A stretch of DNA of 64,000 bases, taken from Spirochaetota bacterium (GTDB lineage Bacteria > Spirochaetota > Spirochaetia > CADAEX01). The notes under the pieces are model-generated. The model was given only the letters and a program-made list of their open reading frames with translations, ran no database searches and was not told the origin of the DNA. The position numbers and the translations under genes are program-made. Numbering within the stretch: position 1 is the stretch's first letter; each line of letters starts with the position of its first letter. Below, piece after piece: positions 8,715-29,141 of the stretch. Where the stretch lies: NCBI GenBank assembly GCA_009786125.1, contig WQTU01000139.1, positions 8,483-72,482 of the forward strand, given 5' to 3'.

Positions 8715-8717
8715 TTG

Positions 8718-9788
8718 TTAGCCCCCATCTCCGGCTTTTCCTTGTTTTTTCTTCCTCTTCTGCGTCTCTTCTGTCTTGGTCTCAAGTTCAATAAATCTAT
8801 CAAAATCACTTTTGAATAGTTTGTCCTGTACAATGCGATATTTTTCAAATTCGGTTTCTGCATGTTTTTGGGCAATTTCTGCGGAGACCTTTCCGGCATC
8901 ACTTAAAATTTCACGGTCTGTTGCCGCAATGAAGCGGTTAAGCCGGGTTTCCCAATCACTCATAGTCATGGGAATACGCCGAATAGCCATATCTTCTGCA
9001 ATATCCAGATAGGCGTTAACAAGTCGTTCAAGTTGCTTCATTTCAAATTCAGTTAAGTAATTTTTAGCAACAACAACATCGTATTTTTGGATTTTTCCTT
9101 TTGGAGCGTCATTCCAAGAAGTTAAACCCATGTGCTGTTTTTCGGAATTGGCGCGTTCGATAATTAATTCCGCGGCTGTATGACCATGAATAGCCCAGTG
9201 AAGTTTATTTTGCACAGTAGCAAAAAAACGTTTGGTCGCAGCGGCAGTTACATCATAATCAACGGAAGTAGCATAAATATCAGTAATTTTCTGATAGAAT
9301 TTTCGTTCGCTTAGGCGTATTTCTCGGATACGTGCCAGTTGTTCTTCAAAATACTTGTTTGTTAATATGCTGCCGGATTTCAGACGTTCATCGTCCATGA
9401 CGTAGGCTTTAATCGTAAATTCTTCAATTATGTTTGTTGCCCATTTGCGAAATTGAACAGCTCGTTCAGAGTTTACTTTGTAGCCGACAGCAATTATGGC
9501 TTTTAAGTTGTAATGCTTTGTATCATAAGTTTTGCCATCTGAAGCAGTTATCCGGAAATTCCGGATAACTGCTTTTTCGTCCAATTCACTATCAGCAAAT
9601 ATTTTTTTTAAGTGTTCGTTAATAGTACGAACATTTACATCATAAAGCACAGCCATCATCTTTTGCGACAGCCATACGTTTTCGTCAGCATATATTGCCT
9701 CAACTCCATCTTTGCCGCTTGCAGCAATAAAAGTTAAATATTCTGCAGCAGAACTGCGGATAGTGATTTCTTTTTTTGGGGATTTCAT
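8718..9788 (-). CDS. RhuM-family (virulence protein RhuM) DNA-binding protein
   Basis: The sequence IRNFRITASDGKTYDTKHYNLKAIIAVGYKVNSERAVQFRKWATNII matches the RhuM family, which is commonly embedded in type I R-M loci. Confidence 0.75.
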   Translation of the reverse strand: MKSPKKEITIRSSAAEYLTFIAASGKDGVEAIYADENVWLSQKMMAVLYDVNVRTINEHLKKIFADSELDEKAVIRNFRITASDGKTYDTKHYNLKAIIAVGYKVNSERAVQFRKWATNIIEEFTIKAYVMDDERLKSGSILTNKYFEEQLARIREIRLSERKFYQKITDIYATSVDYDVTAAATKRFFATVQNKLHWAIHGHTAAELIIERANSEKQHMGLTSWNDAPKGKIQKYDVVVAKNYLTEFEMKQLERLVNAYLDIAEDMAIRRIPMTMSDWETRLNRFIAATDREILSDAGKVSAEIAQKHAETEFEKYRIVQDKLFKSDFDRFIELETKTEETQKRKKKQGKAGDGG

Positions 9789-9816
9789 AGATTCACCTTT
9801 AATTTATTCCACTCAC

Positions 9817-10530
9817 TCATTGACTTTTCCCCCTCATAGAATATCTCACAATCCATTTGCCGGTTTTATCAGCACCAACACGCTCTATAACCCCTGATTT
9901 TTTCAGTTGAGCAACATTGTATTCCACTCTACGTTTAGTTATTTGAATGGTACCTGCAATTTTTTCAGCAGTAATTTCAGGGTTTTCAATCATTAAGGCA
10001 ACAATTTTCGCTTTTAATTCATCCAATCTATAATTTACACCACCATTTACACCACCATCTAATGCTTCTTCCCTTTTATTGTTATTTCTGATATGAAAGC
10101 AAATTGAAAACATAGTTGCCAAAATATCAAATTCGGGCTCAGGAAGGTTATCGGCAATGCAGCCGCTTTTCATTTTTTCAATACCTCTTCCCCAAGCTTC
10201 AATTTGCCCGGAACGAAAATAATATTTTCCTCTAAAGCTGATGGCATTCGGGTGCAGGCTTATCTTTATGACAATATAATCTAAGCTTTTTTCTGTGTAC
10301 AAATTGACATCAGCTAAAATCCCCATTGTTGAGCGAATTTTATTAGGAAGCTCTTCCAACAATTTTGATGCATTTGATATTCCGACAACTACACCACGAT
10401 TGTTTTTGCCAATTTCAAGAACACCTCCCTGTGCATTAGCAAAACCGCAAATCCACTTCAGGTATTCGTCGCGCCAAGTCTCTTTCCATTCAACAATCTG
10501 ATTTTCTCGGCTTTTAACTTTTTTATTCAT
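9817..10530 (-). CDS. AlbA_2 (Schlafen-like) domain protein with C-terminal winged-HTH
   Basis: N-terminal [27 protein letters not shown] is AlbA_2-like. A C-terminal HTH is present. There is a 4-nt overlap with hsdM. Confidence 0.65.
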
Positions 10531-12068
10531 ATTTTCACCCGTTTTAGGTTTTGCAAAATAGCTTTGTTAAGCCTTTCTTCTTCTTTTAATTGCGCCTCAA
10601 ATTCTGCCTTTAAGCTACTGAACCGTTCCTTAAAATCAAAGTCATCTTCTTCATCCGGAAGCCCAACATATCTGCCCGGTGTTAATACATAATCAAGTTC
10701 TTTGACACGCTCTATATTTGCAGAAAAACAAAACCCTTTTACATCTTCGTATTTTCCTTTAAACTTTCGCCATTCGTGATAAGTTGAAGCGATTTTTTTA
10801 ATATCATCTTGCGACAGCTCTTTTGTTCTGCGGTTAATCAAATGTCCTTCATTGCGTGCATCAATAAACAGAATCTCGTTAGTCCTGTTTCGACTACCTC
10901 CGTTAGCTTTATTGCGGGATAAAAACCACAAACAAGCAGGTATTTGGGTATTCAAAAAAAGCTTGCCGGGAAGATTAACAATACAGTCAACAAGCCGCGC
11001 TTCGATCAAAGCTTTGCGAATATCGCCCTCGCCCGAAGTTTTGGAAGTGAGCGAACCTTTTGCCAGAACAAATCCGGCAGTGCCGCTTGGGCTTAAATGA
11101 TAAAGAAAGTGCTGGATCCACGCATAGTTTGCATTCCCGACAGGGGGAACACCATACTTCCATCTGCCGTCTTTGCGAAGCAGATCCCCGGACCAGTCAC
11201 TGTCATTAAACGGCGGATTGGCAATAACAAAATCTGCCTTTAAATCTTTGTGCGCGTCATTCAAGAAAGAGCCTTCGTTATTCCACTTGACCTGCGAGCT
11301 GTCAATGCCGCGAATAGCAAGATTCATTTTTGCCAGGCGCCATGTTGTCTGATTACTTTCCTGACCAATAATGGATATATCGCTTATTTTACCTTTATGC
11401 TCTGCCACAAATTTTTCTGATTGCACAAACATACCGCCGGACCCGCAGCAAGGATCAAATACGCGGCCTTTGTATGGCTCAAGTATTTCTACCAGAAGTT
11501 CAACAACACTTCGGGGAGTATAGAACTGGCCGCCTTTTTTTCCTTCTGCAAGAGCGAATTCACCTAAAAAATATTCAAACACATGACCAAGCACATCTGC
11601 ACTTCGTGCTTTCGCGTTTCCAAGAGCAATATTTCCAATCAGGTCAATTAATCCGCCAAGGTTTGTGGGATCCAAATTGCCGCGCGCAAATACTTTTGGC
11701 AATACATCTTTCAGCGATGGATTATCTTTTTCGATTGCATCCATTGCATTATCTACATCTTTGCCTATGGTTGGCAATTTTGCCTTAGATTGCAGATATG
11801 TCCAGCGGGCAACTTCGGGAACAAAGAAAACATTTTCTGCTTTGTATTCATCTTTGTCTTCGGGGTCTGAGCCAGCGTATTCGCCTTTTTCGCTTTTTAG
11901 TTTTGCATAAAGTTCTTCGAAAGCATCTGAGATGTATTTTAAAAAAATCAGCCCGAGAACAACATGTTTGTATTCAGCAGCGTCGATATTTTTTCTTAGT
12001 TTGTCGGCAGATTTCCAGAGCTGCTTTTCGATTGGTTCGTTACTGATGTTTTCTTTAGTCTTTGCCAT
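10527..12068 (-). CDS. hsdM: Type I restriction-modification DNA methyltransferase subunit HsdM
   Basis: AdoMet motif [12 protein letters not shown] and catalytic motif IV NPPFN are present. The N-terminal HsdM_N-like region is present. Confidence 0.9.
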
Positions 12069-15069: not shown

Positions 15070-15930
15070 CTAATACCTATAATATAGAACTCCAAATTGC
15101 TGTAATCGACCAATTCTGTCATGCGTGTTGGGGTGAGTTGAATACAGAGCTTTCAAAAATGATTCTTGTGGCTCACTTGTTCCGATGGCATCCAAACCTT
15201 TTGCTAATTCAAATCCATAACCTAACTCAGCGGCATATTTGTCGGCATCATATTCATTTTCCCGCGATGACCACATTAAAAACAGCATACAAAATTTTGT
15301 CCAAAGCCATATAATAGCAGCGAAAAACAATCCTATAATAACAGTACCAAAAGAACGACGTCTAATCCCGGAAATAAGAGAAAAAGCACCTATTATTGTG
15401 TATATTAGTTTTATGATTAGAAGTAATGTAGTTAGAATAAAATTGCCACCCCCGATTAAAAGCTGAATCTCATTATGACGATACGCTAAATGTGCTACTT
15501 CATGTGCTAAAATTCCTTGAATAACATCATCAGGTAGCTGAAAAAGCCCCTCGGTTACACAAATTGTCCTTCGCCCGATTGCGTAAGCGTTTGGTTCGGG
15601 GGAATAAATTACTTTCAAAACTATTTTATTTGTAAGCTTTGGTGTTTTTCTTTTTGCTTTATTGTATACAATTTCCAGCAATGGAATCATTCGAATTCTC
15701 ATGTCAACTCTTGTCATTTTTCTGGCTCCAGCCATTAAGCAGAGAATCCATTCGCCGATTGAAGAAAAAGCAATAAATATTGACAGGATATAAATAATGA
15801 CTATGACATACAGAGAATGAAAACCAATACTAGCGAAAAGTCCAATTATGATTAGCGCATTTAGGATAAAAAAAATAATTGTCCCAATACTTGATTTTTT
15901 AAATATATTTTTTGCTATATCCATACTCAT
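15070..15930 (-). CDS. M48-family (HtpX-like) membrane zinc metalloprotease
   Basis: HEVAH (HExxH) plus a downstream EYDADKYAAELG motif, with N-terminal and internal TM helices. It is the last gene of the operon, 16 nt after the FtsK-like gene. Confidence 0.75.
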   Translation of the reverse strand: MSMDIAKNIFKKSSIGTIIFFILNALIIIGLFASIGFHSLYVIVIIYILSIFIAFSSIGEWILCLMAGARKMTRVDMRIRMIPLLEIVYNKAKRKTPKLTNKIVLKVIYSPEPNAYAIGRRTICVTEGLFQLPDDVIQGILAHEVAHLAYRHNEIQLLIGGGNFILTTLLLIIKLIYTIIGAFSLISGIRRRSFGTVIIGLFFAAIIWLWTKFCMLFLMWSSRENEYDADKYAAELGYGFELAKGLDAIGTSEPQESFLKALYSTHPNTHDRIGRLQQFGVLYYRY

Positions 15931-15945
15931 TGTTACTGCCCTTTT

Positions 15946-18900
15946 CTAATCATGAATGGACAGACTTTTAATATATTTTTTTAATTCAGAATTATCGGGC
16001 ATGATATAAGGTTTATATTGGAAGATGTTTTTTACTCCATCAGAGTAATATACTGTATTATCTTTTAAACCAGCAACAGCAACGCCGTCAATGAGATTGT
16101 CAGCATCGCTGTTGCTCAAAGCAAAAATGATTCTTGCAGGAAATTTGGATAAAATGTTTTCACCATAATACATATTTTCCTTGACGCTTTGATATTCAAG
16201 CGAAGAAGTAATAAAATAAATTCCATAATTGGACCCATCGTCAATAAGCTGCAACAGTTTTTCTGAGATGGACAGGGATGGAGAGCCTGCATTTCCTGAT
16301 ACACCGAAATCAGCAAATTCATTTACGGACTTAGTGGCAATATTATCAATATATTCACTTTCATCTACGGACTCACCTTTAAACATTTTTTTTATAAGAT
16401 CAAGAAATTGCAGGTTCTTTATTACAACCAAAGATTGTTTATTATCCCCGCCCTTTTTTCTCTCTGAGTAAATTGTAAATAAATCGTTGATAATTTGAAT
16501 TATTTCTGTTCTGTTTTTTGCAGTCCTGAAACGTAAACTAAAACCGGTTAAACAATCATAAAATGCAGCCGAGATGCTTTCGCCTATTAAACTCTCTCCA
16601 TCTATACAGTAAACATTAGTATTTGTGTTCAGTAATGCTGAAAACATACAAAGGTTAGTAAGATTTTCAGCCATTTTTTCGTTTGCTCCACAAATTAATA
16701 AATTATGCCTTCTGCGCCGATCAAACTGCATAATAAATGGTGGTGCAACCTTTATGAGTGTCCCCATGTATATTTTTATAACGTTATCAGATGAAGAACC
16801 TGTTTTGCTTTGATTCAAATATTCAACAAGTGAAACCGTTCTGTTTCCTTCAAATATTTGCATCGTAGCTGGATAATCTGCATACTTTTCAGAAATAAGA
16901 GACAAATATTTTATTTGTGCTTTTTTTGAGCAATATGCGGCACGGAATCCTATATTATTTGATTCCATGTATTCCAAATTCATTACGGCTGTACCGATAG
17001 GGCCTTTCATCATTTCAATGATTTTATCATCGTTTCGATTTCCGAATAAATACCGTATATCATCCTCACCGCATTTTAAACCAATACGGATACGCATTTG
17101 TTCAATAATGCCATGCGATAGTGTCAGTTCACTTATAATTTTTGTAGTCTGCGTTGCCATCAAAAGATGAATGCCAAAGGCCCGACCTTCGGTGACGATC
17201 CGCTTAGTCAGTTCAGAGCAATTTCTGGCTACTTTGCGATTTGCAGAATCATTAAAAAGAATTTGAAACTCGTCCATGACAACTAAAATACGTGGCAGAG
17301 GATTTCCTGTGCCTTTTATATAATCAAAAAGGCTTGATTGTCCAGAATTTTTAAACAAGTCTCCACGGCGCAGCATTTCGCTGACTAGATTTTCCAATAT
17401 ACTCTCGCCAAATTCCTGCATGGCATCAAGCGCTAATAATTGAATATGCGGCAAATTGAAAGATTCATAAATCTTAAACTCTGTTCCGCTTTTAAAATCC
17501 ATCAAATACAAATGTAACTCATCTGGGCTATGGGATAACATACCACTCATAATTATTGTGTGCAGTAAAGTTGATTTGCCGGAGCCCGTAGCACCGGCGA
17601 TTATCCCATGATGTGATGAACCTTCTCCCAATATCAAGTCTACAGGGTTTTCGCCGTCGCCAATGCCCACGGTAATAGATAGTCTTTTTGCTGTTGAAGA
17701 AGAAAAAAGCGATGGACTTATAATGTCTTCAAGGGATAGACCTTTTTGTTTTAGGTTGGTAATAGCTTCTATGTATTGATTTATAAAATCGGAAATCCTG
17801 TTCTTTGATAGCTCAGGTGCTACATCAACTTGTAATCCAAAAGGTTGAAGAATATATTTTTTTTCAACATATTCCAACAAAGAACAGTGTTTTTTTATCT
17901 CTTCAAGATGTTCATCGATACTCTCATACTTTGAAAATAAGATATTTGGATTATGGCATATAACTGCGTAAATTCCGCATTTGCTGCCATTATTAAGAAT
18001 ATTTATTAACAACTCTATACTTCGGTTGTCAAAATTGCGGGGAAAATCAAATATAATCAACATAATAATAGGTTCGATACGATTAGGCGTGTTACTGTTG
18101 TATTCAATAATATTGGCAAAGCGATTGCCGAGCTTCTCCTGGATAAACTCGTCAATATATCTGTTTAATTTTTGCAGCGTACCTATCATAGCGTCTTGTG
18201 TGGTATAAATTTGTCCGTCAAAAATATCAGGAAGATTTTGGCGAAAATCCAAAAAAGGCGTTATGCTGTTACCCCGGCGTTCAGCATCAAATACGCAAAA
18301 TTTTATTTTTGAAACCGGAACAGAAGATAGAAAGCTCCACATTAAACCGTGTATAAATTTTATTACATGCTGCTGGACTGCTTCCGGGCAAATAATTAAT
18401 AGACTACTTTTTTCTTTAAGGTTAAAAATTGCCGGCAAAATAAAAGTTTGTGAATTTTGTGTTGTCAATTCAGTTTTTATTCTTGCAATCGTATTGTTAT
18501 CTGCTACTAAATCCAAAGGACAGGATAAATACCCTACTGAGATTTCCGCGGGGAAACTGTCTGTAACTGACGGAACTACACCAAAAGTATTGTTATACCT
18601 GTCAAGAGTATTTTTTATTGCACTTATTGCAAATTGAACTTTATCGGCATTTTCACTGTCTATCAGTTCACAGACTATAGAACCTAATAAAGCAATATTG
18701 CCGTGAAAACTACTGTAAGTGAATAAATAATTTTTGATATATCTTGATAAATCATTTCCTGCAAGGGCTTCATTATATGTTACCCGAAGATTGTAGTAGA
18801 GGAACATATCAACCGCTTGTTGGATGATAATACTGTTTTTTACATGGTAAGGCGGCAAGGCATTTCCTGACTGTACTCTATATACAATTACGGTATAAAC

Positions 18901-20226
18901 ACCAAGATTTTTTCCATTTTCAATAATGTTATTTATCGATGCTACATTTTTGTCTCCCAATGCTTCGGGAGAGTCGAAAACAATTAAAACCTTTATATCT
19001 GGTGTTGCCACTGTATTATTGCAAATACTCAGTTTTTCTAATGTTTCCCTTATTTCCTCATTGGATGTTTTTACTCCTCCATTAAACAGTTCCGGTATTT
19101 TTTTGATAAAATCCATATATGAAGACACATTTTTTCCCTGACCTTCTGAATCTATTATGCTGAAAGTCAAATGTGTAACCGGGGCAAAAGCAATAAAACT
19201 CTGTATTATGGAGCTAACAAGTTGGTTTTTAAGATTGCTATTTACCGTATATTTTACAAGTAAATTCAAATTATCGCTTAAAGAAAATACAAGAGGAAAC
19301 CTAAGTAATTTACTTTGTGAAATAATGGCCGCACATTTATCTTTAATAAGTGAAAACAAAATCTTGGAACTCACAAATAATTCTAATGGATAGTCAATAT
19401 TCCCTAAGACAATAGTATCATCCCATGCACAATAGCTTGATGTTATTCCTGTAAAGTTACTAATATAGCGTTCATTAATTGTTTTTAATGAACCTAACAG
19501 ACTATCAGGTAAAATCTTATCTAACTGTTCACAAATCTCATCAGCCAATATTTCTACGTTGCTTTCATACCTTGATTTTATTTTAGACAGTTCTGCTTGA
19601 TACTTTGATTCTATTTCCTCAGTTTTTTTGGCATGAGCATCTTTCTCAGCTTGTGTTGAATCATTGACCAGTTCAGCTATTGTTTTTTTGATTTCTTCCA
19701 TTAAATTTTCTAGTCTTATTTTCAGAACAATTAAATCTTCATAGTCTTGTTTTCGTTGTTTTGAAAAGGCAAAGTTTATACCATCAAAAAGAGCAGGTAA
19801 TTTCTCTTTTGAATATTTTAATGAAAGTGATTCAAATTGTTTTTTAACATTTTCTAAGGCTAAAAAAATGTCAGGATCATCAATGGTGGTTATTTCGGCT
19901 TTTTTTCCCAGCTCCTCTGTTTTAAGATCTCGCGCTTTAACATAATATTTATCAGCATTTGCCAGAGAAGTATCCAATGCCAATACTTCTTTATATATTT
20001 TTTCAGCATTGTTCTTTAATTCGGCACCTTTTTTTCTAGTAACATTAGCACTACTATCATATTGCCCAGCGGCATTTGACATGAATTGATTATATTGTTC
20101 TTCCAAGCTTTTTTTTGAGTTTTCAAAATTATTCCATAATTGCTGAATTCTCTGATCAGATTGTTCTGCAAAGGAATTAATGTTATTAATGAGTCTCAAA
20201 ACTGTTTGATATGTAATTTTACTCAT
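15946..20226 (-). CDS. Giant FtsK/SpoIIIE-family multi-domain ATPase with N-terminal coiled coil (EssC/EccC-like, no TM or FHA)
   Basis: One intact FtsK-type P-loop domain (HHGIIAGATGSGKSTLLHTII; Walker B RILVVMDEFQ) is flanked by three degenerate FtsK-like domains (VLIVFDSPE, IIMLIIFDFPRNFDN, SLVVIKNLQFLD). About 250 aa of N-terminal coiled coil. No hydrophobic TM segment. Confidence 0.7.
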   Translation of the reverse strand: MSKITYQTVLRLINNINSFAEQSDQRIQQLWNNFENSKKSLEEQYNQFMSNAAGQYDSSANVTRKKGAELKNNAEKIYKEVLALDTSLANADKYYVKARDLKTEELGKKAEITTIDDPDIFLALENVKKQFESLSLKYSKEKLPALFDGINFAFSKQRKQDYEDLIVLKIRLENLMEEIKKTIAELVNDSTQAEKDAHAKKTEEIESKYQAELSKIKSRYESNVEILADEICEQLDKILPDSLLGSLKTINERYISNFTGITSSYCAWDDTIVLGNIDYPLELFVSSKILFSLIKDKCAAIISQSKLLRFPLVFSLSDNLNLLVKYTVNSNLKNQLVSSIIQSFIAFAPVTHLTFSIIDSEGQGKNVSSYMDFIKKIPELFNGGVKTSNEEIRETLEKLSICNNTVATPDIKVLIVFDSPEALGDKNVASINNIIENGKNLGVYTVIVYRVQSGNALPPYHVKNSIIIQQAVDMFLYYNLRVTYNEALAGNDLSRYIKNYLFTYSSFHGNIALLGSIVCELIDSENADKVQFAISAIKNTLDRYNNTFGVVPSVTDSFPAEISVGYLSCPLDLVADNNTIARIKTELTTQNSQTFILPAIFNLKEKSSLLIICPEAVQQHVIKFIHGLMWSFLSSVPVSKIKFCVFDAERRGNSITPFLDFRQNLPDIFDGQIYTTQDAMIGTLQKLNRYIDEFIQEKLGNRFANIIEYNSNTPNRIEPIIMLIIFDFPRNFDNRSIELLINILNNGSKCGIYAVICHNPNILFSKYESIDEHLEEIKKHCSLLEYVEKKYILQPFGLQVDVAPELSKNRISDFINQYIEAITNLKQKGLSLEDIISPSLFSSSTAKRLSITVGIGDGENPVDLILGEGSSHHGIIAGATGSGKSTLLHTIIMSGMLSHSPDELHLYLMDFKSGTEFKIYESFNLPHIQLLALDAMQEFGESILENLVSEMLRRGDLFKNSGQSSLFDYIKGTGNPLPRILVVMDEFQILFNDSANRKVARNCSELTKRIVTEGRAFGIHLLMATQTTKIISELTLSHGIIEQMRIRIGLKCGEDDIRYLFGNRNDDKIIEMMKGPIGTAVMNLEYMESNNIGFRAAYCSKKAQIKYLSLISEKYADYPATMQIFEGNRTVSLVEYLNQSKTGSSSDNVIKIYMGTLIKVAPPFIMQFDRRRRHNLLICGANEKMAENLTNLCMFSALLNTNTNVYCIDGESLIGESISAAFYDCLTGFSLRFRTAKNRTEIIQIINDLFTIYSERKKGGDNKQSLVVIKNLQFLDLIKKMFKGESVDESEYIDNIATKSVNEFADFGVSGNAGSPSLSISEKLLQLIDDGSNYGIYFITSSLEYQSVKENMYYGENILSKFPARIIFALSNSDADNLIDGVAVAGLKDNTVYYSDGVKNIFQYKPYIMPDNSELKKYIKSLSIHD

Positions 20227-20254: not shown

Positions 20255-21379
20255 TTACTTCTCATACTTGCATTTTTTGCCGCATTTTTTTGAAAAACCA
20301 ACTTTTAGTGAAGTCGTAACCTGAAGGGGATAGCTAAATATCTCAACCATTTCGCCGCCGATTTTCGGATTACTTGTATTGCTTACAAGCGTATATTGCG
20401 TAAGATTATTCAATAAACGCGGGATATAACCCTCATTGTTTGCATTAAAAATATCGAGTATCAGCTTGATACCGATTGAAGTAGCAAAATTTATATCGAC
20501 TGATATACCAGGCTCAAACTTTACTCCTTCGGTATTTTCTTGATTTGAGTATACATGATGATTGGCCTCGGCTCTTGACGAAAGGCCGCTGCCATCGCCT
20601 AAAGCGCACTCATAACATGGCAAGCCTTTTCCATACAGGTGATAAAAAATCTCACCAGCAAAAGCCCTTTCCCAAAATCCTATAGAAACAAAAGAGGATT
20701 GATAGTATATGCTGATTCTATTTGTGTACACGTCCGCAATGCGGTTGTCAGCACAGCCGATAAAAACTGTGTTTCCAGCTACACAAAACGAATCCATAGT
20801 TTCTTTTGGCAAATTCTGTACGATGCCTTCAAAAGTAATTACCTCTGCACTTGGATTAATATTAAGAATCTTTCTTTTGAGAGCATATACTTTAAAATCA
20901 CCAACATCTTCTATTCCGCATTGATGGCGGCAAATATTATGATATTCTACTATATCTGCATCAACCAAAATAAAATGCTTTACTCCAGCCCGTGCCAACT
21001 CCAGGGCAACCAGGCTGCCGACAGAGCCGCAGCCTAATATTATTGCTTTTTTTTGGCACATTATATCAGATTCTAATATCCCCTTGTTACGTGAGAATAT
21101 ATTTTGATAGAGGCTGTATATTTCACATTTTATTTTTTTTCCATAACTATAAAAATCTATACCTGCACTTGTAATAACTCCACACAGCTTGTTCTTGTTA
21201 CAATTACTGCCTTTCGGTAACACTTTTCCTAGAAGCTCTCCTTTACTTTCCAGTTCGGGAGGAAATACATTATATATGGCAGATTCTTTGTAATACCTGC
21301 CATATATATTCCTTTCATTTTGAGTACTTGCCTGTATGTCTGATATGAATACCGTCTTTTCCATTTGTGGTTTTTTCAT
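20255..21379 (-). CDS. ThiF/MoeB/E1-like adenylyltransferase (ubiquitin-activating-enzyme-like)
   Basis: Rossmann nucleotide loop KKAIILGCGSVGSLVALELARAGVKHFILVDADIVEYHNICRHQ is present, with downstream CxxC (CYEC) and conserved Cys candidates. Confidence 0.8.
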   Translation of the reverse strand: MKKPQMEKTVFISDIQASTQNERNIYGRYYKESAIYNVFPPELESKGELLGKVLPKGSNCNKNKLCGVITSAGIDFYSYGKKIKCEIYSLYQNIFSRNKGILESDIMCQKKAIILGCGSVGSLVALELARAGVKHFILVDADIVEYHNICRHQCGIEDVGDFKVYALKRKILNINPSAEVITFEGIVQNLPKETMDSFCVAGNTVFIGCADNRIADVYTNRISIYYQSSFVSIGFWERAFAGEIFYHLYGKGLPCYECALGDGSGLSSRAEANHHVYSNQENTEGVKFEPGISVDINFATSIGIKLILDIFNANNEGYIPRLLNNLTQYTLVSNTSNPKIGGEMVEIFSYPLQVTTSLKVGFSKKCGKKCKYEK

Positions 21380-21381
21380 TC

Positions 21382-22368
21382 CTATAAATCCTTGTTTTCA
21401 TTTCCTATACCGAACGCACGCAGTAAACCAGACTTAAATGTGACATCTGCGGGGTTAAAGTCTGTTAATAAATTGGTGAATAGCCCTGGGGTATATAAAT
21501 AGCAATCATCGTCATGAGAAAAAACAATCTGCTTCTTATGTGCAACATATATAAAGTGAATCATTGTAACAATGTTACTTGACCCTTTATGAGATAAGCT
21601 TAAAACTCCCTTGTTTTGTTCAATTTTCAAAGCCAATTTTCGATTTTCAGAAAAATATGTTATATCGTCCAGCAAAGAATCAATTAAAAAATCTCGATAT
21701 TTTTCAGCCTCTTCTGGCTTGTAATCATCTTTAGACAGTGTAGTTTTCTGTAATTTTCCTTTGATGCTAACAAGTAAACGTAAAAAATCTATTTCCGGTT
21801 TGTCAAAGGTTTTATTTCCGGAATATAATTTGTCAGCGTAACTATTTATATATCCAAGTGATTTTTCCGCATTTCTTAACGCAAGTAAATGTTCAGGGAT
21901 TAAGTTATCACCCACTTTATAAGCGATTTTAGTATATTTAAGGGGCCATGCTACATGATATGGCGTAATGCGGAACTTTGGATCAATATTAACCAAAACA
22001 GAAACAGCGCCATTGGCAGACATTTTAGCATAATCAGAGTTAGTTCCATCGTCTGTGGAAGAAAACTCGTCAAAAGAACCCGGATGCCTGTGCCATAGCC
22101 CAATTAAAGTCAATTTTGCTTGATATATCTGTACTAATTTGTTTATTAAATGTTCTGTATATTTTTTATCGTACTCGAAGTATGCAACTTGAAAAATCGC
22201 CTTTGGGCCTGGGTCTATTGCTTCTATGACATACCAATTCCCATTCTCAAAGCAGCCTAAAAATATTCCGCCGGTTTCGGTTTTTATTTTTTCTGAGGTT
22301 TCCGAAATAACCGCCGTGTATGCGCGATTAGAAAAAATCACCTGCATAATTTTCCCCCGTTGATACAT
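21382..22368 (-). CDS. JAB/MPN (JAMM) metallo-isopeptidase-like protein with ~200-aa C-terminal extension
   Basis: Perfect JAMM motif H-x-H-x7-S-x2-D in LIGLWHRHPGSFDEFSSTDD, with an upstream conserved Glu (VIEAID). Confidence 0.8.
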   Translation of the reverse strand: MYQRGKIMQVIFSNRAYTAVISETSEKIKTETGGIFLGCFENGNWYVIEAIDPGPKAIFQVAYFEYDKKYTEHLINKLVQIYQAKLTLIGLWHRHPGSFDEFSSTDDGTNSDYAKMSANGAVSVLVNIDPKFRITPYHVAWPLKYTKIAYKVGDNLIPEHLLALRNAEKSLGYINSYADKLYSGNKTFDKPEIDFLRLLVSIKGKLQKTTLSKDDYKPEEAEKYRDFLIDSLLDDITYFSENRKLALKIEQNKGVLSLSHKGSSNIVTMIHFIYVAHKKQIVFSHDDDCYLYTPGLFTNLLTDFNPADVTFKSGLLRAFGIGNENKDL

Positions 22369-22431: not shown

Positions 22432-22674
22432 TCAAATAAATCGATCTCGATTCGCTAAACAAAAATTGACAAATGCATCTTTTTTAACAACAAGCTTCAC
22501 TGGAAATGGTAGCCCCTGGTAAACTAAAGAGAATATTGCTTCCACTGCTTTGTCATTTTCAGCTGCCGCTAAAGCAGCAGGCCCTACTTTCTCCTGAAAA
22601 ATCTTTTGTATCTGAGGCCAATGCTCCTCAATAGTTTTCTCGATCTGCTTATTCAGCACATTTCCTAAATCCAT
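22432..22674 (-). CDS. Hypothetical small protein (80 aa) between E2-like and JAB genes
   Basis: ORF with tight packing. Mostly helical with a C-terminal beta-like segment. No C-terminal Gly. Confidence 0.35.
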   Translation of the reverse strand: MDLGNVLNKQIEKTIEEHWPQIQKIFQEKVGPAALAAAENDKAVEAIFSLVYQGLPFPVKLVVKKDAFVNFCLANRDRFI

Positions 22675-22692: not shown

Positions 22693-23208
22693 TTAGTACA
22701 CACCTTCTATTGCTACTTCGTCACTTACCTCTCCGTTGATCCACATTTCACACAACATTATCCATTTGCACGCCCAACTTAGAGAGGAGGCGGCTGATGT
22801 AGAACGAGTCTGCGATGCTTTAAAATATTTGGGGTCGGCAGTACATATAAAATACTCTTCGTTACGTCCGAAGTTATCGCGGTAAATATGCGGAAGCCCC
22901 AAGCCCAAACCCTTTTCAGGCTTAATCGGTAATGTTTTCGCTATATCAACGAGACGCGGTTTAACGGGCAAAATTTGAATTGAGCCGCCATACATACCTT
23001 CTTCTGCCTGGGGATGGGTATTTTTATAAATCAACATCAAATCCCAAACCATTCCGCCTTTTCCGGTTGGCTGAACCTTTCCGCGCCAATATAGCCTTCC
23101 CGAACCATCTTCGAGTTTATAGAGCTTAAACGATGGGAAATATTTCCCCATTGCCATCTGTTCAGCCTCTAACAAATCAGGGTCACTCTGATACCAATAA
23201 AATCCCAT
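22693..23208 (-). CDS. UBC/E2-like ubiquitin-conjugating-enzyme-fold protein
   Basis: YWRGKVQPTGKGGMVWDLMLIYKNTHP resembles the E2 W.G.I.GP..TPYEGG.F.L.I.FP..YP layout. LPHIYRDNFGRNEEYFICTAD resembles HPNIY..G.ICLD, with a candidate catalytic Cys. A strong RBS (AAGGAGG) precedes the start. Confidence 0.55.
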   Translation of the reverse strand: MGFYWYQSDPDLLEAEQMAMGKYFPSFKLYKLEDGSGRLYWRGKVQPTGKGGMVWDLMLIYKNTHPQAEEGMYGGSIQILPVKPRLVDIAKTLPIKPEKGLGLGLPHIYRDNFGRNEEYFICTADPKYFKASQTRSTSAASSLSWACKWIMLCEMWINGEVSDEVAIEGVY

Positions 23209-23209
23209 T

Positions 23210-23392
23210 TTAACCCCTCCTTGCCAATTTTCCGTCAGGCACCTGAATGGCTGTGTGCCCCTGTTCTTCTGCTTCGCTTTGAAATTCTACTTCACCGGAA
23301 GGGGTGACAACTACATCTTCTCCTCCGCGCAAGGCTGCTGCTAACGCACGGCGTCTTGCTGCGACAGCATCCTCATCCGCATTATTATTCAT
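23210..23392 (-). CDS. Small low-complexity protein (60 aa) ending in Gly; candidate Pup/Ubl-like modifier
   Basis: MNNNADEDAVAARRRALAAALRGG...GKLARRG-stop sits 1 nt upstream of the E2-like start. It is GC-richer than its surroundings. The C-terminal codons overlap the E2 RBS. Confidence 0.3.
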   Translation of the reverse strand: MNNNADEDAVAARRRALAAALRGGEDVVVTPSGEVEFQSEAEEQGHTAIQVPDGKLARRG

Positions 23393-23449: not shown

Positions 23450-23680
23450 CTAGTTGTTGTTACCAGAAGTAACTATTACATCCGAATTATCATACTTTGC
23501 AGCTATTAAATCATTACGTCTTTTTGTAATAATAGCGGTATTAACTTCTGTTATGCGAATGCAATCAGTGAGAACATCAGAAGTAATACCCTCTTTTTTA
23601 TATGACAAGGAATCCTCTTTGATGTTTCCGATGATTTTTACAAGCAGCGACTTTTTCTTTTTTTTGATAACACCACCCAT
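23450..23680 (-). CDS. Small protein (76 aa), candidate beta-grasp/YukD-like ubiquitin-like protein
   Basis: Ubiquitin-sized. Hydrophobic periodicity is consistent with beta strands (SLLVKIIGNI, VLTDCIRITEV, SDVIVTSG). It ends ..TSGNNN. It lies 12 nt after the upstream gene. Confidence 0.3.
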   Translation of the reverse strand: MGGVIKKKKKSLLVKIIGNIKEDSLSYKKEGITSDVLTDCIRITEVNTAIITKRRNDLIAAKYDNSDVIVTSGNNN

Positions 23681-23692
23681 ACAAACTCTTGG

Positions 23693-24622
23693 TTATGCTG
23701 TCGCTCTTTCTCTAGGTTTTTTATCAAAATTTCTGATAATTTCACCATTAGCAGAAATAGTAACCACACTCTCGCGTAATCCTGCTTGAGCCGCTTTCTC
23801 GCCATTCTTAAGAACAGATTGAGCGTATGTATTGTCAAATAATTCGCTGCCTTGCTCGGCCAGCTTAGCCAAATCAACGCCCTTATTATTTTCCATAGCT
23901 AAGGTATATGCAAAATAGTCTCTCATTCGCCGAAGAGCATTTTCATCGCTTGCAATAATCTCATCACATTTCTTTATCTGCCTAAACCGCTTGATGAAAC
24001 GATATATGGTAATAATTGGACTTACAACAGCTAAAAAAAACCCAGAAATAATTCCCAAAAGAAAACCTCCCCCTATATCGCCATCGCGCCCCTTCGCACC
24101 TCCAAAGAAAGCACCTATCATTAATTTAACTATAGTTCCTAATGAAGCGCCAATGAAAACCAAAAAAATAGTGGCAAACACCATATCCTCGGGGAAATCT
24201 GAACCAGCAGTCAAACCTAAGCCAACAATCAAACCTAAAACAGCACCAACAACCATCCATATACGTTCTTTTTTTACTTGCTTCCTGAAAGCCGTAACAT
24301 TATCAATATTTTCCTGTACTAAAATAGCGGTGCATTTATAACACAAAGCAGTTCCAGCATAGTCACCGATACTTACGCCATATGTATCATAACAATCTCG
24401 ACAAATACCTGTTCCACATCCCCTGCATAATGCTGCTGCTTGTTTTGACGGATGGTGACCACACTCAATACCTGCTTCCAATACACACTCGCGGCATAAA
24501 CCTGCATATTTATTACCAGGTTTGCTAAAAAGATTAACACAATTTCTACAAATCCCCTTTCCGCATCTTTTGCATTGCGCTACTGCTTGTTCGTCTTCAT
24601 GAAAATAACATCCAATTGCCAT
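23693..24622 (-). CDS. Membrane protein with N-terminal tandem zinc-ribbon/B-box-like Cys clusters
   Basis: Cys clusters C-x2-H-x8-C-x2-C-x4-C-x2-C and C-x2-C-x7-C-HH-x9-C-x2-C-x4-C-x2-C are followed by 3-4 Gly-rich TM helices and a ~110-aa C-terminal domain. Confidence 0.6.
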   Translation of the reverse strand: MAIGCYFHEDEQAVAQCKRCGKGICRNCVNLFSKPGNKYAGLCRECVLEAGIECGHHPSKQAAALCRGCGTGICRDCYDTYGVSIGDYAGTALCYKCTAILVQENIDNVTAFRKQVKKERIWMVVGAVLGLIVGLGLTAGSDFPEDMVFATIFLVFIGASLGTIVKLMIGAFFGGAKGRDGDIGGGFLLGIISGFFLAVVSPIITIYRFIKRFRQIKKCDEIIASDENALRRMRDYFAYTLAMENNKGVDLAKLAEQGSELFDNTYAQSVLKNGEKAAQAGLRESVVTISANGEIIRNFDKKPRERATA

Positions 24623-24702: not shown

Positions 24703-24975
24703 CTAAAATTTAACACGGCTGTATGAATCCAGTGATTCTGCCAATCTGTTCAGTTTTGGTTGCGCTGCTTCAAGCGGACCAATAGGCGATTCAATTAAAG
24801 CCGCAATTTTCACCATTAGATTACGGTATTGCTCTCCCTGATAGTCATTCCATTCAGCCGACTGTTGTGATGTCTGTCGGACATCTCTTACGGCTTTTGC
24901 CAGCTCTTTAATGATCGCACCAATATCAGCATTAATTTTACGAATTGCCTCTGAATTTGCTTTGACATTTGACAC
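24703..24975 (-). CDS. WXG100-like small helical-hairpin protein (paralog 1)
   Basis: 90 aa. Central ..AEWNDYQGEQYRNL.. Starts xxVxxxSEAIRK like its paralogs. Confidence 0.45.
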   Translation of the reverse strand: MSNVKANSEAIRKINADIGAIIKELAKAVRDVRQTSQQSAEWNDYQGEQYRNLMVKIAALIESPIGPLEAAQPKLNRLAESLDSYSRVKF

Positions 24976-24989
24976 AATATTCTCCTTTT

Positions 24990-25265
24990 CTATAAGTTGA
25001 CTTTTTCGTATTCTTCAAGCGTTTTGTAGATTTCAACCAGTTTCTCAAGGATCTCAAATAAAGCATCCTTTGGTTCCCGCAATTTATCTGTACACTCTTT
25101 CACGATAATTCCGAGCTGATTATATTTTTGATCTCTCCATCCTTGCCCTGCATCTTTGTAGCTTTGGTCCAACCTTAATGTTGACTTGCTTAAGTCCTGT
25201 ATAACTTCATTGCATATTTTTTCCGCTTTTCTTATAGCTTCTTTTCCGACTGAAACCTGTGCCAT
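24990..25265 (-). CDS. WXG100-like small helical-hairpin protein (paralog 2)
   Basis: 91 aa. Central ..GQGWRDQKYNQL.. N-terminal KEAIRKAEKI parallels paralog 1. Confidence 0.45.
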   Translation of the reverse strand: MAQVSVGKEAIRKAEKICNEVIQDLSKSTLRLDQSYKDAGQGWRDQKYNQLGIIVKECTDKLREPKDALFEILEKLVEIYKTLEEYEKVNL

Positions 25266-25286
25266 ACAAATTCTCCTTTAAAACTC

Positions 25287-26036
25287 CTAGAAATTCTCAC
25301 TTAAATACTTATCAACTGCAGCAATACATTTCTCAATATTGCCTACATTTTGTTCCGTGCCTGAAACTGCCTGTGTTTCAAATGATTTTGAAGCAGATAA
25401 CATTGTGTTTATATTGTCATTCATTTTTGCAAGGGAAGCATTCATTCTTTCCTGCTTATTTCTCAATCTGTCTAAAAACCTTTCAGTTGTGCGAAGTTCA
25501 TCTTCCTTTTTCGCTTTTTCGGCTTGTATCACATGTACTTTTTGTTGTAATTGTAAACCGCACTCTTTTAATTTGAATAATTCATTTTCTGAACTTCTGA
25601 TTTCAGACTCTGTTTGATATAATTGATTCCTTCTATCATCGATTTGCTTTTGGATTTTCTCTTTTACCTCGCCTTCTGCTCTTGCAGCGGCTTGTTCCAT
25701 TTCCGAAATTTGCTTCTTAATGTGCATAGCGTTTGTCTGATTAGCCGTTAAATCGTTTTGTGCTGATACCAGTTTTTGTTCTGTCGATTTTATTTCGTTA
25801 TTCATTTGATTTATTGTATCGGCAAGTCTATTTATTTCTGCTTTGTACTGATTAATTCTATTTGTTGTCTCCTCAATTTTTTGCTTGATTTTCTGCATTT
25901 CTAAGTCTGCGGATTTGGAAACAACAGATATTTGTTGCCCTATTCTTGTTGAAAAGCCCGAAATATCAATATAGTAATCATTAAGTGCGGCTTTTACTTT
26001 TGTAAGAGCGTCTTTTGAAACGCTAATTTCGGACAT
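25287..26036 (-). CDS. Coiled-coil protein (249 aa) with N-terminal WXG/LXG-like helical region
   Basis: Extended heptad-like Q/E/K-rich sequence. The N-terminus MSEISVSKDALTKVKAALNDYY resembles its small neighbours. Confidence 0.4.
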   Translation of the reverse strand: MSEISVSKDALTKVKAALNDYYIDISGFSTRIGQQISVVSKSADLEMQKIKQKIEETTNRINQYKAEINRLADTINQMNNEIKSTEQKLVSAQNDLTANQTNAMHIKKQISEMEQAAARAEGEVKEKIQKQIDDRRNQLYQTESEIRSSENELFKLKECGLQLQQKVHVIQAEKAKKEDELRTTERFLDRLRNKQERMNASLAKMNDNINTMLSASKSFETQAVSGTEQNVGNIEKCIAAVDKYLSENF

Positions 26037-26038
26037 AG

Positions 26039-26275
26039 TTAAACTTCCTCTGCCGCTATGGCAAAAAATTTATCTATTCCGGAACAAGCTCTTTCGCCGC
26101 TCTCTATAACGGTTTTTGATGTTTTTGCCAACTCGCCAATCCGTGCCTGCAGCGAAGCATAATTGCCATCGTTCCATATATCCCCAACTCTGTTGATTTT
26201 TTCACTTACTTTTCCGGTTGACAGTTTGAAAGCATCAAGCTCCTTTTTTATAGCTGAAGCGTGGTTAATTACCAT
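26039..26275 (-). CDS. WXG100-like small helical-hairpin protein (paralog 3)
   Basis: 78 aa. Central ..GDIWNDGNYASLQARIGEL.. (W-N-D-G). Confidence 0.45.
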   Translation of the reverse strand: MVINHASAIKKELDAFKLSTGKVSEKINRVGDIWNDGNYASLQARIGELAKTSKTVIESGERACSGIDKFFAIAAEEV

Positions 26276-26480: not shown

Positions 26481-26582
26481 ACACTCAGTTGTTAAGCGAT
26501 TATATACTAAAATATTAAGTGCTGTAAAGATAGATTTGAATAATTCTTGTTATTTATCCGAAATCTTGCTAACTTATAAAGT

Positions 26583-26933
26583 ATGCTAGATCCGGCTATT
26601 CCTACTGTGAATGAAAGAATCCGACAGGTTCGTTCTGTTTTAGGGCTATCTCAGGTTAAATTTTCTTCAATTATAGCTCTGTCTAGCGGTTATATAGCTG
26701 GAGTAGAGACAGGTCGAATTTCTGTAAATAGCAGAATGATAAAACTGATATGTTCCTCCTTTAGGGTAAATGAATCTTGGCTGAGACATGGTGAAGGAGA
26801 GATGTTTTCAGAAGATATTATTGAAGATAAGCAGTTCAATAACCTGGTTAATACAGTACGGGCTCTGCCTCCAAAATATCAAGAGTTTCTATTCGAGGTT
26901 TTGGATATGCTGGTAAAACTGAAGGATAAATAA
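26583..26933 (+). CDS. XRE/Cro-C1-type HTH transcriptional regulator, divergent from the operon
   Basis: HTH ERIRQVRSVLGLSQVKFSSIIALSSGYIAGVETGRIS is present. A 102-bp shared intergenic region separates it from the 26480 operon start. Confidence 0.7.
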   Translation: MLDPAIPTVNERIRQVRSVLGLSQVKFSSIIALSSGYIAGVETGRISVNSRMIKLICSSFRVNESWLRHGEGEMFSEDIIEDKQFNNLVNTVRALPPKYQEFLFEVLDMLVKLKDK

Positions 26934-27174: not shown

Positions 27175-28248
27175 ATGAAGAGTTTTTTAAGAGCATCGGT
27201 TTTTATTTTATCGGTTTTACTACTCACATCATTTTCAAAGTGTTCTTTTTTTCCTGAAGAGGGACAACCGAAAGAACTGGTGATTGTCTCGTACAATGTT
27301 TTTAATCTTTTTGATGATGTAAGAAACGGGACAGAGTATCCGGAGTTTGACCCTACGAACGGGATGTGGACATCTTCGATGTATAGGCAGCGCCTGCAAA
27401 ATACGGCAAAAGTTATTGCCGCGACAGCGCCCGGCCGCGGACCGGATATAATCTGCCTTCAAGAAATTGAAAACAGAAAGGTTCTGCGAGACCTTGCGAC
27501 AATATGGCTTAAGAATTATTCGTATCAATATTATGTATCTGCAGATAACGAAAGAAGCGCGATAACAACAGGAATAATAAGCAGGTATCCAATAAAAAGA
27601 ACGCTGAATCATTCTTTGTTTTTGGATGATTTTACTAACCTCAGAATTATCACAGAAACTGTTATTGAGATAGGCGATACTGATTTTTACATATTTAACT
27701 CTCATTTGAAATCAAAACTTGGGGGTGTTGAATTTACAGAGGCTGCGCGGATAAAAGCTGCGGAAGCTATAGCCGCAAGATGCAGGGAAATATACCGCGA
27801 AAATCCGCGGGCAAAAATAATTGTAACAGGAGACTTGAATGTAAACATAGATGAGTATATCCGGCAAGAGAGGCGCTATTTGACGGCAATAATGCCGTTG
27901 GACGAAATGTGTATATTTGCCGGCGAAGATGTTCTGGTTGTAACGAGGAACAGACATGAGGCTGTTTTGGCTGGAGATTCTGTTGTTTTTTATTCTCCCT
28001 GGTACAGGTGGTTTGACGAGGGGAATGAGGTTGGGAGTTTTATGTTCAGAGGCAGTTGGCAGACTCTGGATCATTTTCTTTTGACCGCACCGTTTTTTAA
28101 TGGAAGAAAATGGGAATATTCCGGGTTTAGGGTATTAAATAATCCGGAACTTGCCTGTTCGCTTGGTTATCCGCGCAGGTGGAACAACAGAATGCAGAGC
28201 GGCTATTCAGACCATTTTCCCATAGTGCTTTATTTAACCAGAAACTGA
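27175..28248 (+). CDS. Secreted endonuclease/exonuclease/phosphatase (EEP) family protein
   Basis: Signal peptide, then VIVSYNVFNLFDD ... DIICLQEIEN, typical of the EEP fold. Confidence 0.7.
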   Translation: MKSFLRASVFILSVLLLTSFSKCSFFPEEGQPKELVIVSYNVFNLFDDVRNGTEYPEFDPTNGMWTSSMYRQRLQNTAKVIAATAPGRGPDIICLQEIENRKVLRDLATIWLKNYSYQYYVSADNERSAITTGIISRYPIKRTLNHSLFLDDFTNLRIITETVIEIGDTDFYIFNSHLKSKLGGVEFTEAARIKAAEAIAARCREIYRENPRAKIIVTGDLNVNIDEYIRQERRYLTAIMPLDEMCIFAGEDVLVVTRNRHEAVLAGDSVVFYSPWYRWFDEGNEVGSFMFRGSWQTLDHFLLTAPFFNGRKWEYSGFRVLNNPELACSLGYPRRWNNRMQSGYSDHFPIVLYLTRN

Positions 28249-28525: not shown

Positions 28526-28819
28526 ATGGTAAATTTAGCACAAGATATAAAATCTATTTCTTACGTAAAGGCACATACTACCGAAATCGTAAATTATGTA
28601 GGGAATACAAAATCCCCTGTTGTAATTACTCAAAATGGGGAAGCAAAAGCAGTAATTATCGATATAGAAAGTTATCAAAAAACACTTAATGCAATACATT
28701 TGGCGAAATTATTGAGTTTTAGCGAAAAGGATATTAAGAATAAAAAAACAATAAATCACGAGGCTGCGAAAAAAATATTTAAAGAGACATTGGGTCGAAG
28801 AAACGATGCGAAAAATTGA
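28526..28819 (+). CDS. Phd/YefM-family antitoxin
   Basis: ...EIVNYVGNTKSPVVITQNGEAKAVIIDIESYQ is the Phd/YefM fold signature. It overlaps the downstream toxin by 14 nt. Confidence 0.7.
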   Translation: MVNLAQDIKSISYVKAHTTEIVNYVGNTKSPVVITQNGEAKAVIIDIESYQKTLNAIHLAKLLSFSEKDIKNKKTINHEAAKKIFKETLGRRNDAKN

Positions 28820-29141
28820 ATGGACACAAGATGGCGTAGATTCATTTAATGAAATACTTGAATATTACAAGAACAATGCCGGAGAAAGTGTTGCAAATAA
28901 TATATATGATAAAATAATCAAAAAAATAGATCTTCTGGAGAATGATAAAGTTAAAACAAAGCAGGTTCAGGAATTAAAGGATATCGGAATATTTGATATT
29001 TATGAAATTGTTATATATCCATGGAAAGTGTACTGCAAAATTGAAAATGACAACAAAAGCGCATATATAATGTTTGTGCTAGACGCAAGAAGAAATATAG
29101 AAGAAATACTGCTATCAAAAGTAATTGATAACAAAATATAG
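28806..29141 (+). CDS. RelE/ParE-family toxin
   Basis: 111 aa. N-terminus KIEWTQDGVDSFNEILEYY is as in ParE/RelE. It is paired with the Phd-like gene. Confidence 0.65.
   Translation: MRKIEWTQDGVDSFNEILEYYKNNAGESVANNIYDKIIKKIDLLENDKVKTKQVQELKDIGIFDIYEIVIYPWKVYCKIENDNKSAYIMFVLDARRNIEEILLSKVIDNKI

Follow-up and report, generated by a model that had tools for sequence, protein, structure and literature searches.

Type VII secretion systems (T7SS) are defined by WXG100 proteins together with EccC/EssC ATPases, and they have been studied almost entirely in Actinobacteria and Firmicutes. The WXG100 protein ESAT-6 carries the sequence W-G-G-S-G-S-E-A-Y, and an aromatic residue eight positions after the tryptophan (+8) is the canonical spacing of the family. 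Linkage to an ATPase of the FtsK/SpoIIIE family was reportedly used by Pallen in 2002 as a criterion for WXG100 proteins. HP0062 of Helicobacter pylori is, according to its published description, a dimer of ESAT-6-like hairpins that bend at a WRD, and its gene is clustered with an FtsK/SpoIIIE gene (PMC3397514). Zhang et al. (2012, Biol Direct 7:18, footnote 6 of Table 1) listed "Mobile versions of T7SS" from proteobacteria, planctomycetes and other non-Gram-positive lineages, with solo WXG proteins and a distinct YueA-like ATPase whose several FtsK/HerA domains include only one that is active. W-x-D hairpins of WXG100 type beside FtsK-like ATPases are thus already known. Here we describe a stretch of 64,000 nucleotides (contig WQTU01000139.1, positions 8,483 to 72,482; hereafter the window) from a metagenome-assembled genome (MAG) of the Spirochaetes, in which three small proteins, A, B and C, are encoded together with a coiled-coil protein, CC, in one operon with an EccC/EssC-like ATPase and with E1-like, E2-like and JAB enzymes of a ubiquitin-style module. 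Judging from their sequences, A, B and C are best explained as paralogues within a branch of the ESAT-6/WXG100 superfamily that is marked by W-x-D and also includes HP0062. It seems rather probable that they are the small helical parts of an operon that is conserved, has spread horizontally and has an EccC/EssC-like motor, and that they act as substrates or targeting partners of a T7SS-like apparatus.

The four proteins are encoded by tightly packed open reading frames (ORFs) on the minus strand. A (26039-26275, 78 amino acids, aa) is a helical hairpin with W34-N-D-G-N-Y-A-S-L42 at the turn (26150-26176), CC (25287-26036) is a coiled-coil protein of 249 aa, B (24990-25265, 91 aa) has W43-R-D-Q-K-Y-N-Q-L51 (25113-25139), and C (24703-24975, 90 aa) has W42-N-D44 at the turn (24817-24852 including the following Y..L). 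The initial annotation of this DNA had described the same small ORFs flanking a 249-aa coiled-coil protein, and both the ORFs and the three central peptides it quoted (IWNDGNYASLQARI, GWRDQKYNQLGIIV and EWNDYQGEQYRNLM) are correct. The similar EAIRK N-termini that it pointed out are exact in B and C, but A reads SAIKKEL; likewise, the proposed W-[NR]-D-x2-Y-x2-L motif is exact in A and B, but C fits it only with a three-residue (YQG) insertion. In the six-frame translation of the whole window the strict pattern W.D..Y..L occurs twice, at the centres of A and B, and a relaxed pattern adds C alone. With a probability of about 1.2e-6 per position and about 128,000 positions, some 0.15 strict occurrences would be expected against the two observed, and a chance origin of the motif was rejected. 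According to the profile alignment the aromatic residue of C is at +8 from the tryptophan, and the turn is shorter in A and B, with the aromatic at +5.

Pairwise BLASTP among A, B and C gave no alignment, and their kinship could be tested only by profiles. Database searches brought 20 homologues of C and 27 of A (at 58-79% identity), and a word-index search with B retrieved B itself only; homologues of B were collected from neighbouring loci. In profile-profile comparison (hhalign) B and C matched over their full length with a probability of 95.7% (E value 1e-8), and in another run at 99.8%, a figure inflated by members common to both alignments. With shallow alignments A matched B and C at an insignificant 4-12%, and diverged members from other loci were added to the alignments before the comparisons of A turned informative. 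With these deeper alignments A matched a B-like profile at 91% (E 1e-6) and the whole family at 93% (E 3e-7), with the W-x-D positions in register. The controls stayed at or below 16% for reversed sequences and at or below 2.4% for 20 column-shuffled alignments. The paralogy claimed in the initial annotation can therefore be seen at the profile level, B and C being clear paralogues and A a remote third. CC is conserved at its N-terminal (1-40) and C-terminal (205-249) ends and varies in between, and its N-terminal approximately 80 residues resemble the hairpin family although without W-x-D; this part matched C at 89% (E 2e-6) and the family at 88%, with 2.5% for the reversed control, so that CC may be an elongated fourth relative of the hairpins. 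When the family hidden Markov models (HMMs) were run against all ORFs of the window and of the fetched loci, reciprocal matches were limited to A, B, C and CC.

The kinship with WXG100 proteins was approached from the side of C, as an exhaustive HMMER search with its profile gave 95 cluster representatives. The tryptophan and the aspartate are the sole invariant columns of this wider family, W-x-D being present in 76 of 77 representatives, and the aromatic is at +8 (the C type) in 59 and at +5 (the B and A type) in 12. The Pfam WXG100 model (PF06013) matched 54/77 representatives at E<=0.01 (best 5e-11) and WXG100_2 matched 26/77; one W-N-D member, P0122, scored 31.2 bits and exceeded the Pfam WXG100 gathering cut-off of 27.3 bits. 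A canonical W-S-G tandem protein was found at the margin of the C-profile search. Among proteins of the PDB, HP0062 (E 1.6e-4) is the closest solved structure to the C profile by sequence, and Staphylococcus aureus EsxA matched weakly. The AlphaFold (AF2) model of A has helices at 2-28 and 37-77 and a loop with W34 (predicted local distance difference test score, pLDDT, 86), and that of C has helices at 8-41, 45-62 and 65-89 with W42-N-D44 at the turn (pLDDT 89; predicted template modelling score, pTM, 0.72). Both are thus helix-turn-helix hairpins with W-x-D at the turn, and B probably has the same fold, given its homology to C. Structure-based fold searches with the hairpins were unspecific. 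The lengths of the three proteins (78, 91 and 90 aa) are in the range of the approximately 100 residues of WXG100 proteins, and the W-x-G signature is W-x-D in each of them. The view of the initial annotation, a divergent ESAT-6/WXG100-like hairpin family, agrees with the Pfam matches, with HP0062 and with the AlphaFold models. Its replacement of W-x-G by W-x-D is present in A, B and C, but is not new, as it has been published for HP0062 (PMC3397514). For B and C we regard the WXG100 kinship as solid; for A, where it was drawn from profile-profile comparison, we regard it as good.

The ATPase of the operon (15946-20226, minus strand, 1426 aa) belongs to the FtsK family and by sequence is nearest to EccC and EssC of T7SS. 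Its N-terminus is a coiled coil, followed by duplicated degenerate domains without a P-loop motif (261-560 and 561-840; BLASTP 6e-20, hhalign 100%), a single intact P-loop domain (Walker A, GATGSGKS, at 878; Walker B at 981) and, at the C-terminal end, another degenerate domain. It matched TIGR03924 EccCa (1.8e-34, 119.5 bits against the family cut-off of 509) and TIGR03928 EssC (2.7e-26, 91.5 bits against the family cut-off of 778), and in the PDB it matched EccC 4nh0 (1.4e-30) and FtsK (1.6e-9). The operon consists of 14 co-directional minus-strand genes from 26480 to 15070 with gaps of -11 to 80 nt, in the order orf71, A, CC, B, C, a B-box/transmembrane (TM) protein, p76, p60, E2, p80, JAB, E1, the ATPase and an M48 peptidase.

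To see how far this arrangement is shared, loci were gathered by genome and metagenome scans with a narrow alignment of C, which gave four MAG loci (Fibrobacteria, Eubacteriales, Phycisphaerales and Clostridia) and 46 metagenomic ones, mostly from termite gut according to the sample accession. The synteny set comprised 53 independent loci from at least five phyla, and each count below is over the loci with enough flanking sequence. The order kept is A, CC, B, C, the B-box/TM protein, a small protein with GKLA, E2, JAB, E1 and the EccC-like ATPase. B is directly upstream of C in 48/48 loci, CC is between A and B in 27/31, and A is present in 25/29; the B-box/TM protein follows C in 22 of 23 loci. 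E2 was found in 14/14 loci and E1 in 12/12, and wherever the locus extends far enough, the full E1/E2/JAB module comes after the W-x-D hairpin genes. The initial annotation had placed the hairpins adjacent to an FtsK-like ATPase, and among the homologues, too, the ATPase belongs to the same operon (11 of the 11 loci with enough flank), which is the linkage used to recognise WXG100 proteins. No relatives of E2 were found in plasmid or phage collections and none of C in viral contigs, and therefore we have no evidence for a phage or plasmid origin of the cassette; integrases adjoin two of the loci (L007 and L008).

A second line of evidence comes from several relatives in which the ATPase gene is immediately followed by a gene for a toxin with a fused B-type W-x-D domain. 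At locus L013 the domain is fused to an ADP-ribosyltransferase (P0125, L013:10001-10954; PF03496, 1.4e-26), and a second W-x-D fusion is found at L013:11393-12115. Elsewhere it is joined to a Colicin-DNase/WHH nuclease (L042:19311-20099 and L049:11238-12008), to a Gln_amidase papain-fold toxin, a deamidase (L044:16023-17006), and to uncharacterised C-terminal domains (L045:10987-11667 and L010:19442-20143). The B-like profile matched the toxin fusions at 3e-19 to 6e-21. An ORF of 133 aa overlaps the end of the ADP-ribosyltransferase toxin gene of L013 and is likely to be an immunity gene. A constant N-terminal domain, variable toxins and an adjacent putative immunity gene, the hallmarks of polymorphic toxins, are thus found at the related loci and not in the window. 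The same fusion architecture is shared by polymorphic toxins exported via T7SS by their WXG and LXG domains (PMC3482391). The suggestion that the hairpins could be substrates or adaptors of the neighbouring ATPase, made in the initial annotation, gains support from these W-x-D domains fused to toxins right after the ATPase. In another kind of fusion (P0092, 360 aa, at L016:1237-2319, L017 and L018) a C-type W-x-D hairpin is joined to the B-box/TM protein, which hints that C and the membrane protein interact. The P0092 gene is followed by one for a 626-aa Sel1-repeat protein, and a NikA-like gene is nearby.

The conjugation module of the window has all three enzymes, encoded on the minus strand. 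The E1-like adenylating enzyme (20255-21379, 374 aa) has a ThiF fold with GCGSVG at 116 and CYEC at 255 (Pfam ThiF 9.5e-25; PADLOC E1-E2 of Cap2 type 1.8e-25). The E2-like protein (22693-23208, 171 aa) is of the type found in cyclic-oligonucleotide-based antiphage signalling systems (CBASS), with a candidate catalytic Cys122 after the HIYRDN motif; it matched E2 models of PADLOC at 1e-8, and the E2-CBASS family PF26395 matched weakly, on homologues. The JAB/MPN metallopeptidase (21382-22368, 328 aa) has an intact H93-x-H...S-x-x-D motif and a C-terminal extension of approximately 200 aa (Pfam Prok-JAB 2.5e-7, Cap3-like matches in NCBIfam and PADLOC). Between E2 and JAB there is an 80-aa ORF, p80 (22432-22674, minus), which is not conserved at other loci; at the corresponding position in L003 (11901-12522) there is an MNT/HepT (nucleotidyltransferase/HEPN) toxin-antitoxin pair.

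Just upstream of E2 lies p60 (23210-23392, minus, 60 aa), the conserved core of which ends in an invariant GKLA (...VP.GKLA). In five loci the ORF stops right at GKLA, and in the rest there are 3-8 variable extra residues (RRG in the window); in three loci p60 is fused in frame to E2 (L009:11374-12054, L029:5590-6267 and L039:10500-11249). Because of this invariant end, the stops at it, the variable tails and the fusions to E2, p60 is the most likely candidate for the modifier of the E1/E2/JAB module, which would be processed and activated at its C-terminus. It has no match in Pfam, including the ubiquitin-like (Ubl) families, and its profile gave in the PDB only spurious sub-threshold matches to designed repeat proteins (TIM barrels). 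The gene upstream, p76 (23450-23680, minus), encodes a small basic protein found at some loci and absent from others; basic residues dominate its N-terminus (KKKKKSLL), and its C-terminal half (A..RR..L...D.VV) resembles the N-terminal half of p60.

In the mechanism that we propose, the small proteins would associate, B with C and A with CC, to give helical bundles, by analogy with EsxA/EsxB pairs and with the small helical partners that target LXG toxins. The ATPase might recognise these bundles, possibly via the conserved C-terminal tail of C, Y-x-x-V-K-F (YSRVKF in the window), which resembles the C-terminal signal of CFP-10 that ends in M-G-F. The bundles could be exported substrates themselves, targeting partners for a cargo, or both, and in the relatives the cargo would be a polymorphic toxin with the same W-x-D domain at its N-terminus. 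The membrane part may be supplied by the B-box membrane protein and the M48 peptidase, which the operon has in place of the known membrane partners of a T7SS, and the E1/E2/JAB enzymes would conjugate and process p60 and in this way control or drive the apparatus. A more far-reaching and quite tentative idea is that the operon encodes an undescribed T7SS-like export machine, spread horizontally among diderm and monoderm gut bacteria and run by ubiquitin-style conjugation of p60, with A, B and C as a composite export signal and possibly as conjugation targets.

Several observations weigh against placing the hairpins in a secretion apparatus. The ATPase has neither a convincing TM helix (one marginal window at 340-358) nor an FHA match, and no EssA/EssB/EsaA, EccB/D/E or mycosin (MycP) was found among the operon proteins in Pfam and NCBIfam (orf71, p76, p60 and p80 being covered by the Pfam scan alone). 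Some of the hosts belong to diderm phyla, and an outer-membrane component is not apparent. A toxin fusion is lacking from the operon of the window itself, and L003, the sole exception of its kind, has E2, JAB and E1 but no adjoining ATPase. Finally, A and B of the window have no match to Pfam WXG100, and C with 16.8 bits is below the cut-off.

Of the remaining genes of the operon, the first, orf71, is not conserved at other loci. The B-box/TM protein (23693-24622, minus, 309 aa) has two B-box-like zinc modules (six CxxC), three predicted TM helices (windows at 119-210) and a conserved cytoplasmic C-terminal domain, its Pfam zf-B_box match (5e-4) being sub-threshold. The M48 (HtpX-like) membrane zinc peptidase (15070-15930, minus; Pfam Peptidase_M48 2.7e-23, with TM windows) is encoded by the last gene of the operon and was found also at L011 and L049. 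Upstream of the operon there is a promoter-like site (26499-26528, minus; TTTACA-18-TATAAT, 11/12), a consensus match with no enrichment over shuffles. The divergent gene (26583-26933, plus) encodes an XRE-type helix-turn-helix (HTH) protein with a sub-threshold match to Pfam HTH_19 (1.8e-6; 28.2 bits against the cut-off of 30.2). An HTH gene adjoins the cassette also at L006 and L007, and the protein is a possible regulator of the operon. Just past it, on the plus strand, there are genes for an endonuclease/exonuclease/phosphatase-family protein (27175-28248) and for a Phd/YefM-ParE toxin-antitoxin pair (28526-29141), as judged by Pfam, including matches on the identical contig L001. On the other side, at 7442-12068 (minus), the sequence looks by eye like a type I restriction-modification unit, with a putative HsdS-like gene at 7442-8542, two inserted genes, and a putative HsdM-like methyltransferase with NPPF at 10527-12068.

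In the related loci, Sel1/TPR- and ankyrin-repeat proteins recur in or beside the cassette (L003:8650-9261, L011:10287-11156, L016:2329-4209 and L003:560-7047), and in L011 the gene of one such protein separates C from the B-box gene. A distant W-N-D WXG100 protein is encoded at L015:762-11520 in a different operon with an FtsK-family ATPase (922 aa), in the order vWA, hairpin, 377 aa, 68 aa, FtsK-family ATPase, 138 aa, PP2C, Ser/Thr kinase and superfamily 1 (SF1) helicase. Upstream of the main operon of L011 there appear to be vWA, PP2C-like and kinase-ankyrin proteins, and in L010 and L013 a TerY_C zinc protein follows the ATPase. Together these cases point to a repeated association with vWA/PP2C/kinase modules of the TerY type.

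Against this background other explanations have to be considered, and the one deserving most attention is that the operon would be an intracellular conflict or anti-phage defence system. The E1/E2/JAB enzymes and the ATPase would then sense or answer infection. The hairpins would act in the cytoplasm as scaffolds or adaptors from which effectors, be it the toxins, the M48 peptidase or the membrane protein, are retained or set free. E1, E2 and JAB are indeed most similar to defence proteins of the Cap2/Cap3 type, the ATPase matches the defence models SspH, mad8 and HerA and lacks TM segments, and the surroundings resemble a defence island, with Phd/ParE, the apparent type I restriction-modification unit, MNT/HepT in L003 and the integrases by L007 and L008; diderm hosts without a visible outer-membrane conduit would also fit. 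However, no complete known defence system was matched, and no CD-NTase or other signal generator was found in the operon with Pfam, NCBIfam and PADLOC. The ATPase is nearer to EccC than to HerA or SspH (PDB, NCBIfam), and variable toxins on a constant N-terminal helical domain, with an overlapping small ORF, are the architecture of exported polymorphic toxins (PMC3482391). Taken together, we regard a defence function as rather unlikely, and a location of the hairpins beside the motor of a T7SS-like apparatus as the better explanation. The identity of the operon as a type II CBASS was rejected, since no CD-NTase or CBASS effector model matches any operon protein.

The initial annotation had also offered the hairpins as targets of the Ubl cascade. 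They might be mainly substrates of E1 and E2, with a C-terminus adenylated and conjugated like that of CD-NTases in type II CBASS, or with modified lysines, and the link to the ATPase would be secondary. This would agree with the highly conserved extreme C-terminus of C (...Y..V[KR]F), with the 7-12 lysines in each hairpin protein and with the constant presence of E1/E2/JAB genes together with the hairpin genes. However, p60 suits the role of the modifier better, with its GKLA end, removable tails and E2 fusions; W-x-D hairpins occur beside FtsK-like ATPases also where no E1/E2/JAB was called (L015, and HP0062 beside its FtsK/SpoIIIE gene); and in the toxin fusions the corresponding Y..I[RH]F motif is internal and not C-terminal. 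We thus consider it improbable that conjugation is the main role of the hairpins. The least credible explanation is convergence, in which A, B and C would be unrelated small coiled coils outside WXG100 that share a W-x-D turn by chance or composition. The empty pairwise BLASTP, the 4-12% of the shallow alignments of A, the unspecific fold searches and the lack of Pfam WXG100 matches among the A-family members (0/27) could be read in this way, but the deeper alignments of A, in register on W-x-D and well above their controls, the reciprocal HMM matches, the B-C link (even when the inflated figure is discounted) and the restriction of the strict motif to A and B in the whole window make it very hard to believe.

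Compared with known systems, the family is similar to canonical WXG100 proteins (ESAT-6/CFP-10, EsxA/EsxB; PF06013) in size, in the hairpin fold and in the +8 aromatic of C, and also in its tandem gene pairs (B-C), in its linkage to a multi-domain FtsK-family ATPase and in the N-terminal position of the domain on toxins. It differs in that the glycine of W-x-G is replaced by an invariant aspartate, and in that the hosts are largely beyond Firmicutes and Actinobacteria. HP0062 (PDB 3FX7, 2GTS), with which the sequence similarity is only remote, has been described as a homodimer. The single Walker A flanked by degenerate domains makes the ATPase similar to that of the mobile T7SS of Zhang et al., although here two degenerate domains precede the active one and the N-terminus is a coiled coil. 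The arrangement of A, CC, B, C and the W-x-D toxins may also be analogous, by architecture, to systems in which small helical proteins are encoded beside a longer helical protein or toxin. Such systems are LXG toxins with Lap1/Lap2 (T7SSb) and TapA1/TapA2 with EatA, and their small proteins are regarded as parts of a composite signal that directs the cargo to the EssC/EccC ATPase (PMC9600955, PMC10730906, bioRxiv 10.64898/2026.08.24.746431). No LXG, DUF3130 or DUF3958 was among the Pfam matches listed for the window proteins (for CC, the best 25 of 47).

The closest relatives of E1, E2 and JAB are the Cap2/Cap3 enzymes of type II CBASS and the Bil-type modules. As in these, a protein C-terminus is probably activated, and the JAB protein may trim or reverse the modification. 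Unlike them, the operon has no CD-NTase and no recognisable beta-grasp Ubl, its putative modifier of approximately 50 aa ends in GKLA, and the module is inside a T7SS-like operon. To our knowledge, canonical T7SS loci have not been described with E1/E2/JAB enzymes. Burroughs, Iyer and Aravind (Mol Biosyst, 2011) are said to have treated YukD-like Ubl conjugation and prokaryotic B-box partners of membrane peptidases. We found no literature account of E1/E2/JAB joined with FtsK, EssC, WXG100 or type VII secretion in such an operon, although an earlier mention in Burroughs et al. 2011 is possible. The conserved operon of 12-13 genes, with a T7SS-like ATPase, obligatory E1/E2/JAB, p60, a B-box membrane protein and, in relatives, polymorphic toxins, is thus apparently undescribed.

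If the proposed role of the hairpins is correct, a conserved mobile relative of T7SS would be present in Spirochaetes, Fibrobacteria, Planctomycetes and Clostridia of termite-gut and other communities. The conjugating enzymes that it has retained would offer a direct way to ask whether conjugation controls export of the T7SS type, the uses of Cap2/Cap3-like enzymes would be widened past CBASS and Bil-type defence, and p60 points to a very small candidate modifier unlike ubiquitin. As far as we know, the reason for having ubiquitin-like proteins in canonical T7SS is still unclear. YukD/EsaB and the Ubl domain of EccD likewise tie ubiquitin-like biology to WXG100/FtsK-ATPase systems, although YukD is reported not to be conjugated (PMC1779556), whereas here E1, E2 and JAB are present and no YukD/EsaB-type Ubl was detected among the operon proteins in Pfam and NCBIfam (the four small ORFs being covered by Pfam). 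If conjugation of p60 does run the apparatus, the operon would connect ubiquitin-like proteins with type VII secretion at the level of mechanism, a connection at which YukD/EsaB and the EccD Ubl domain only hint.

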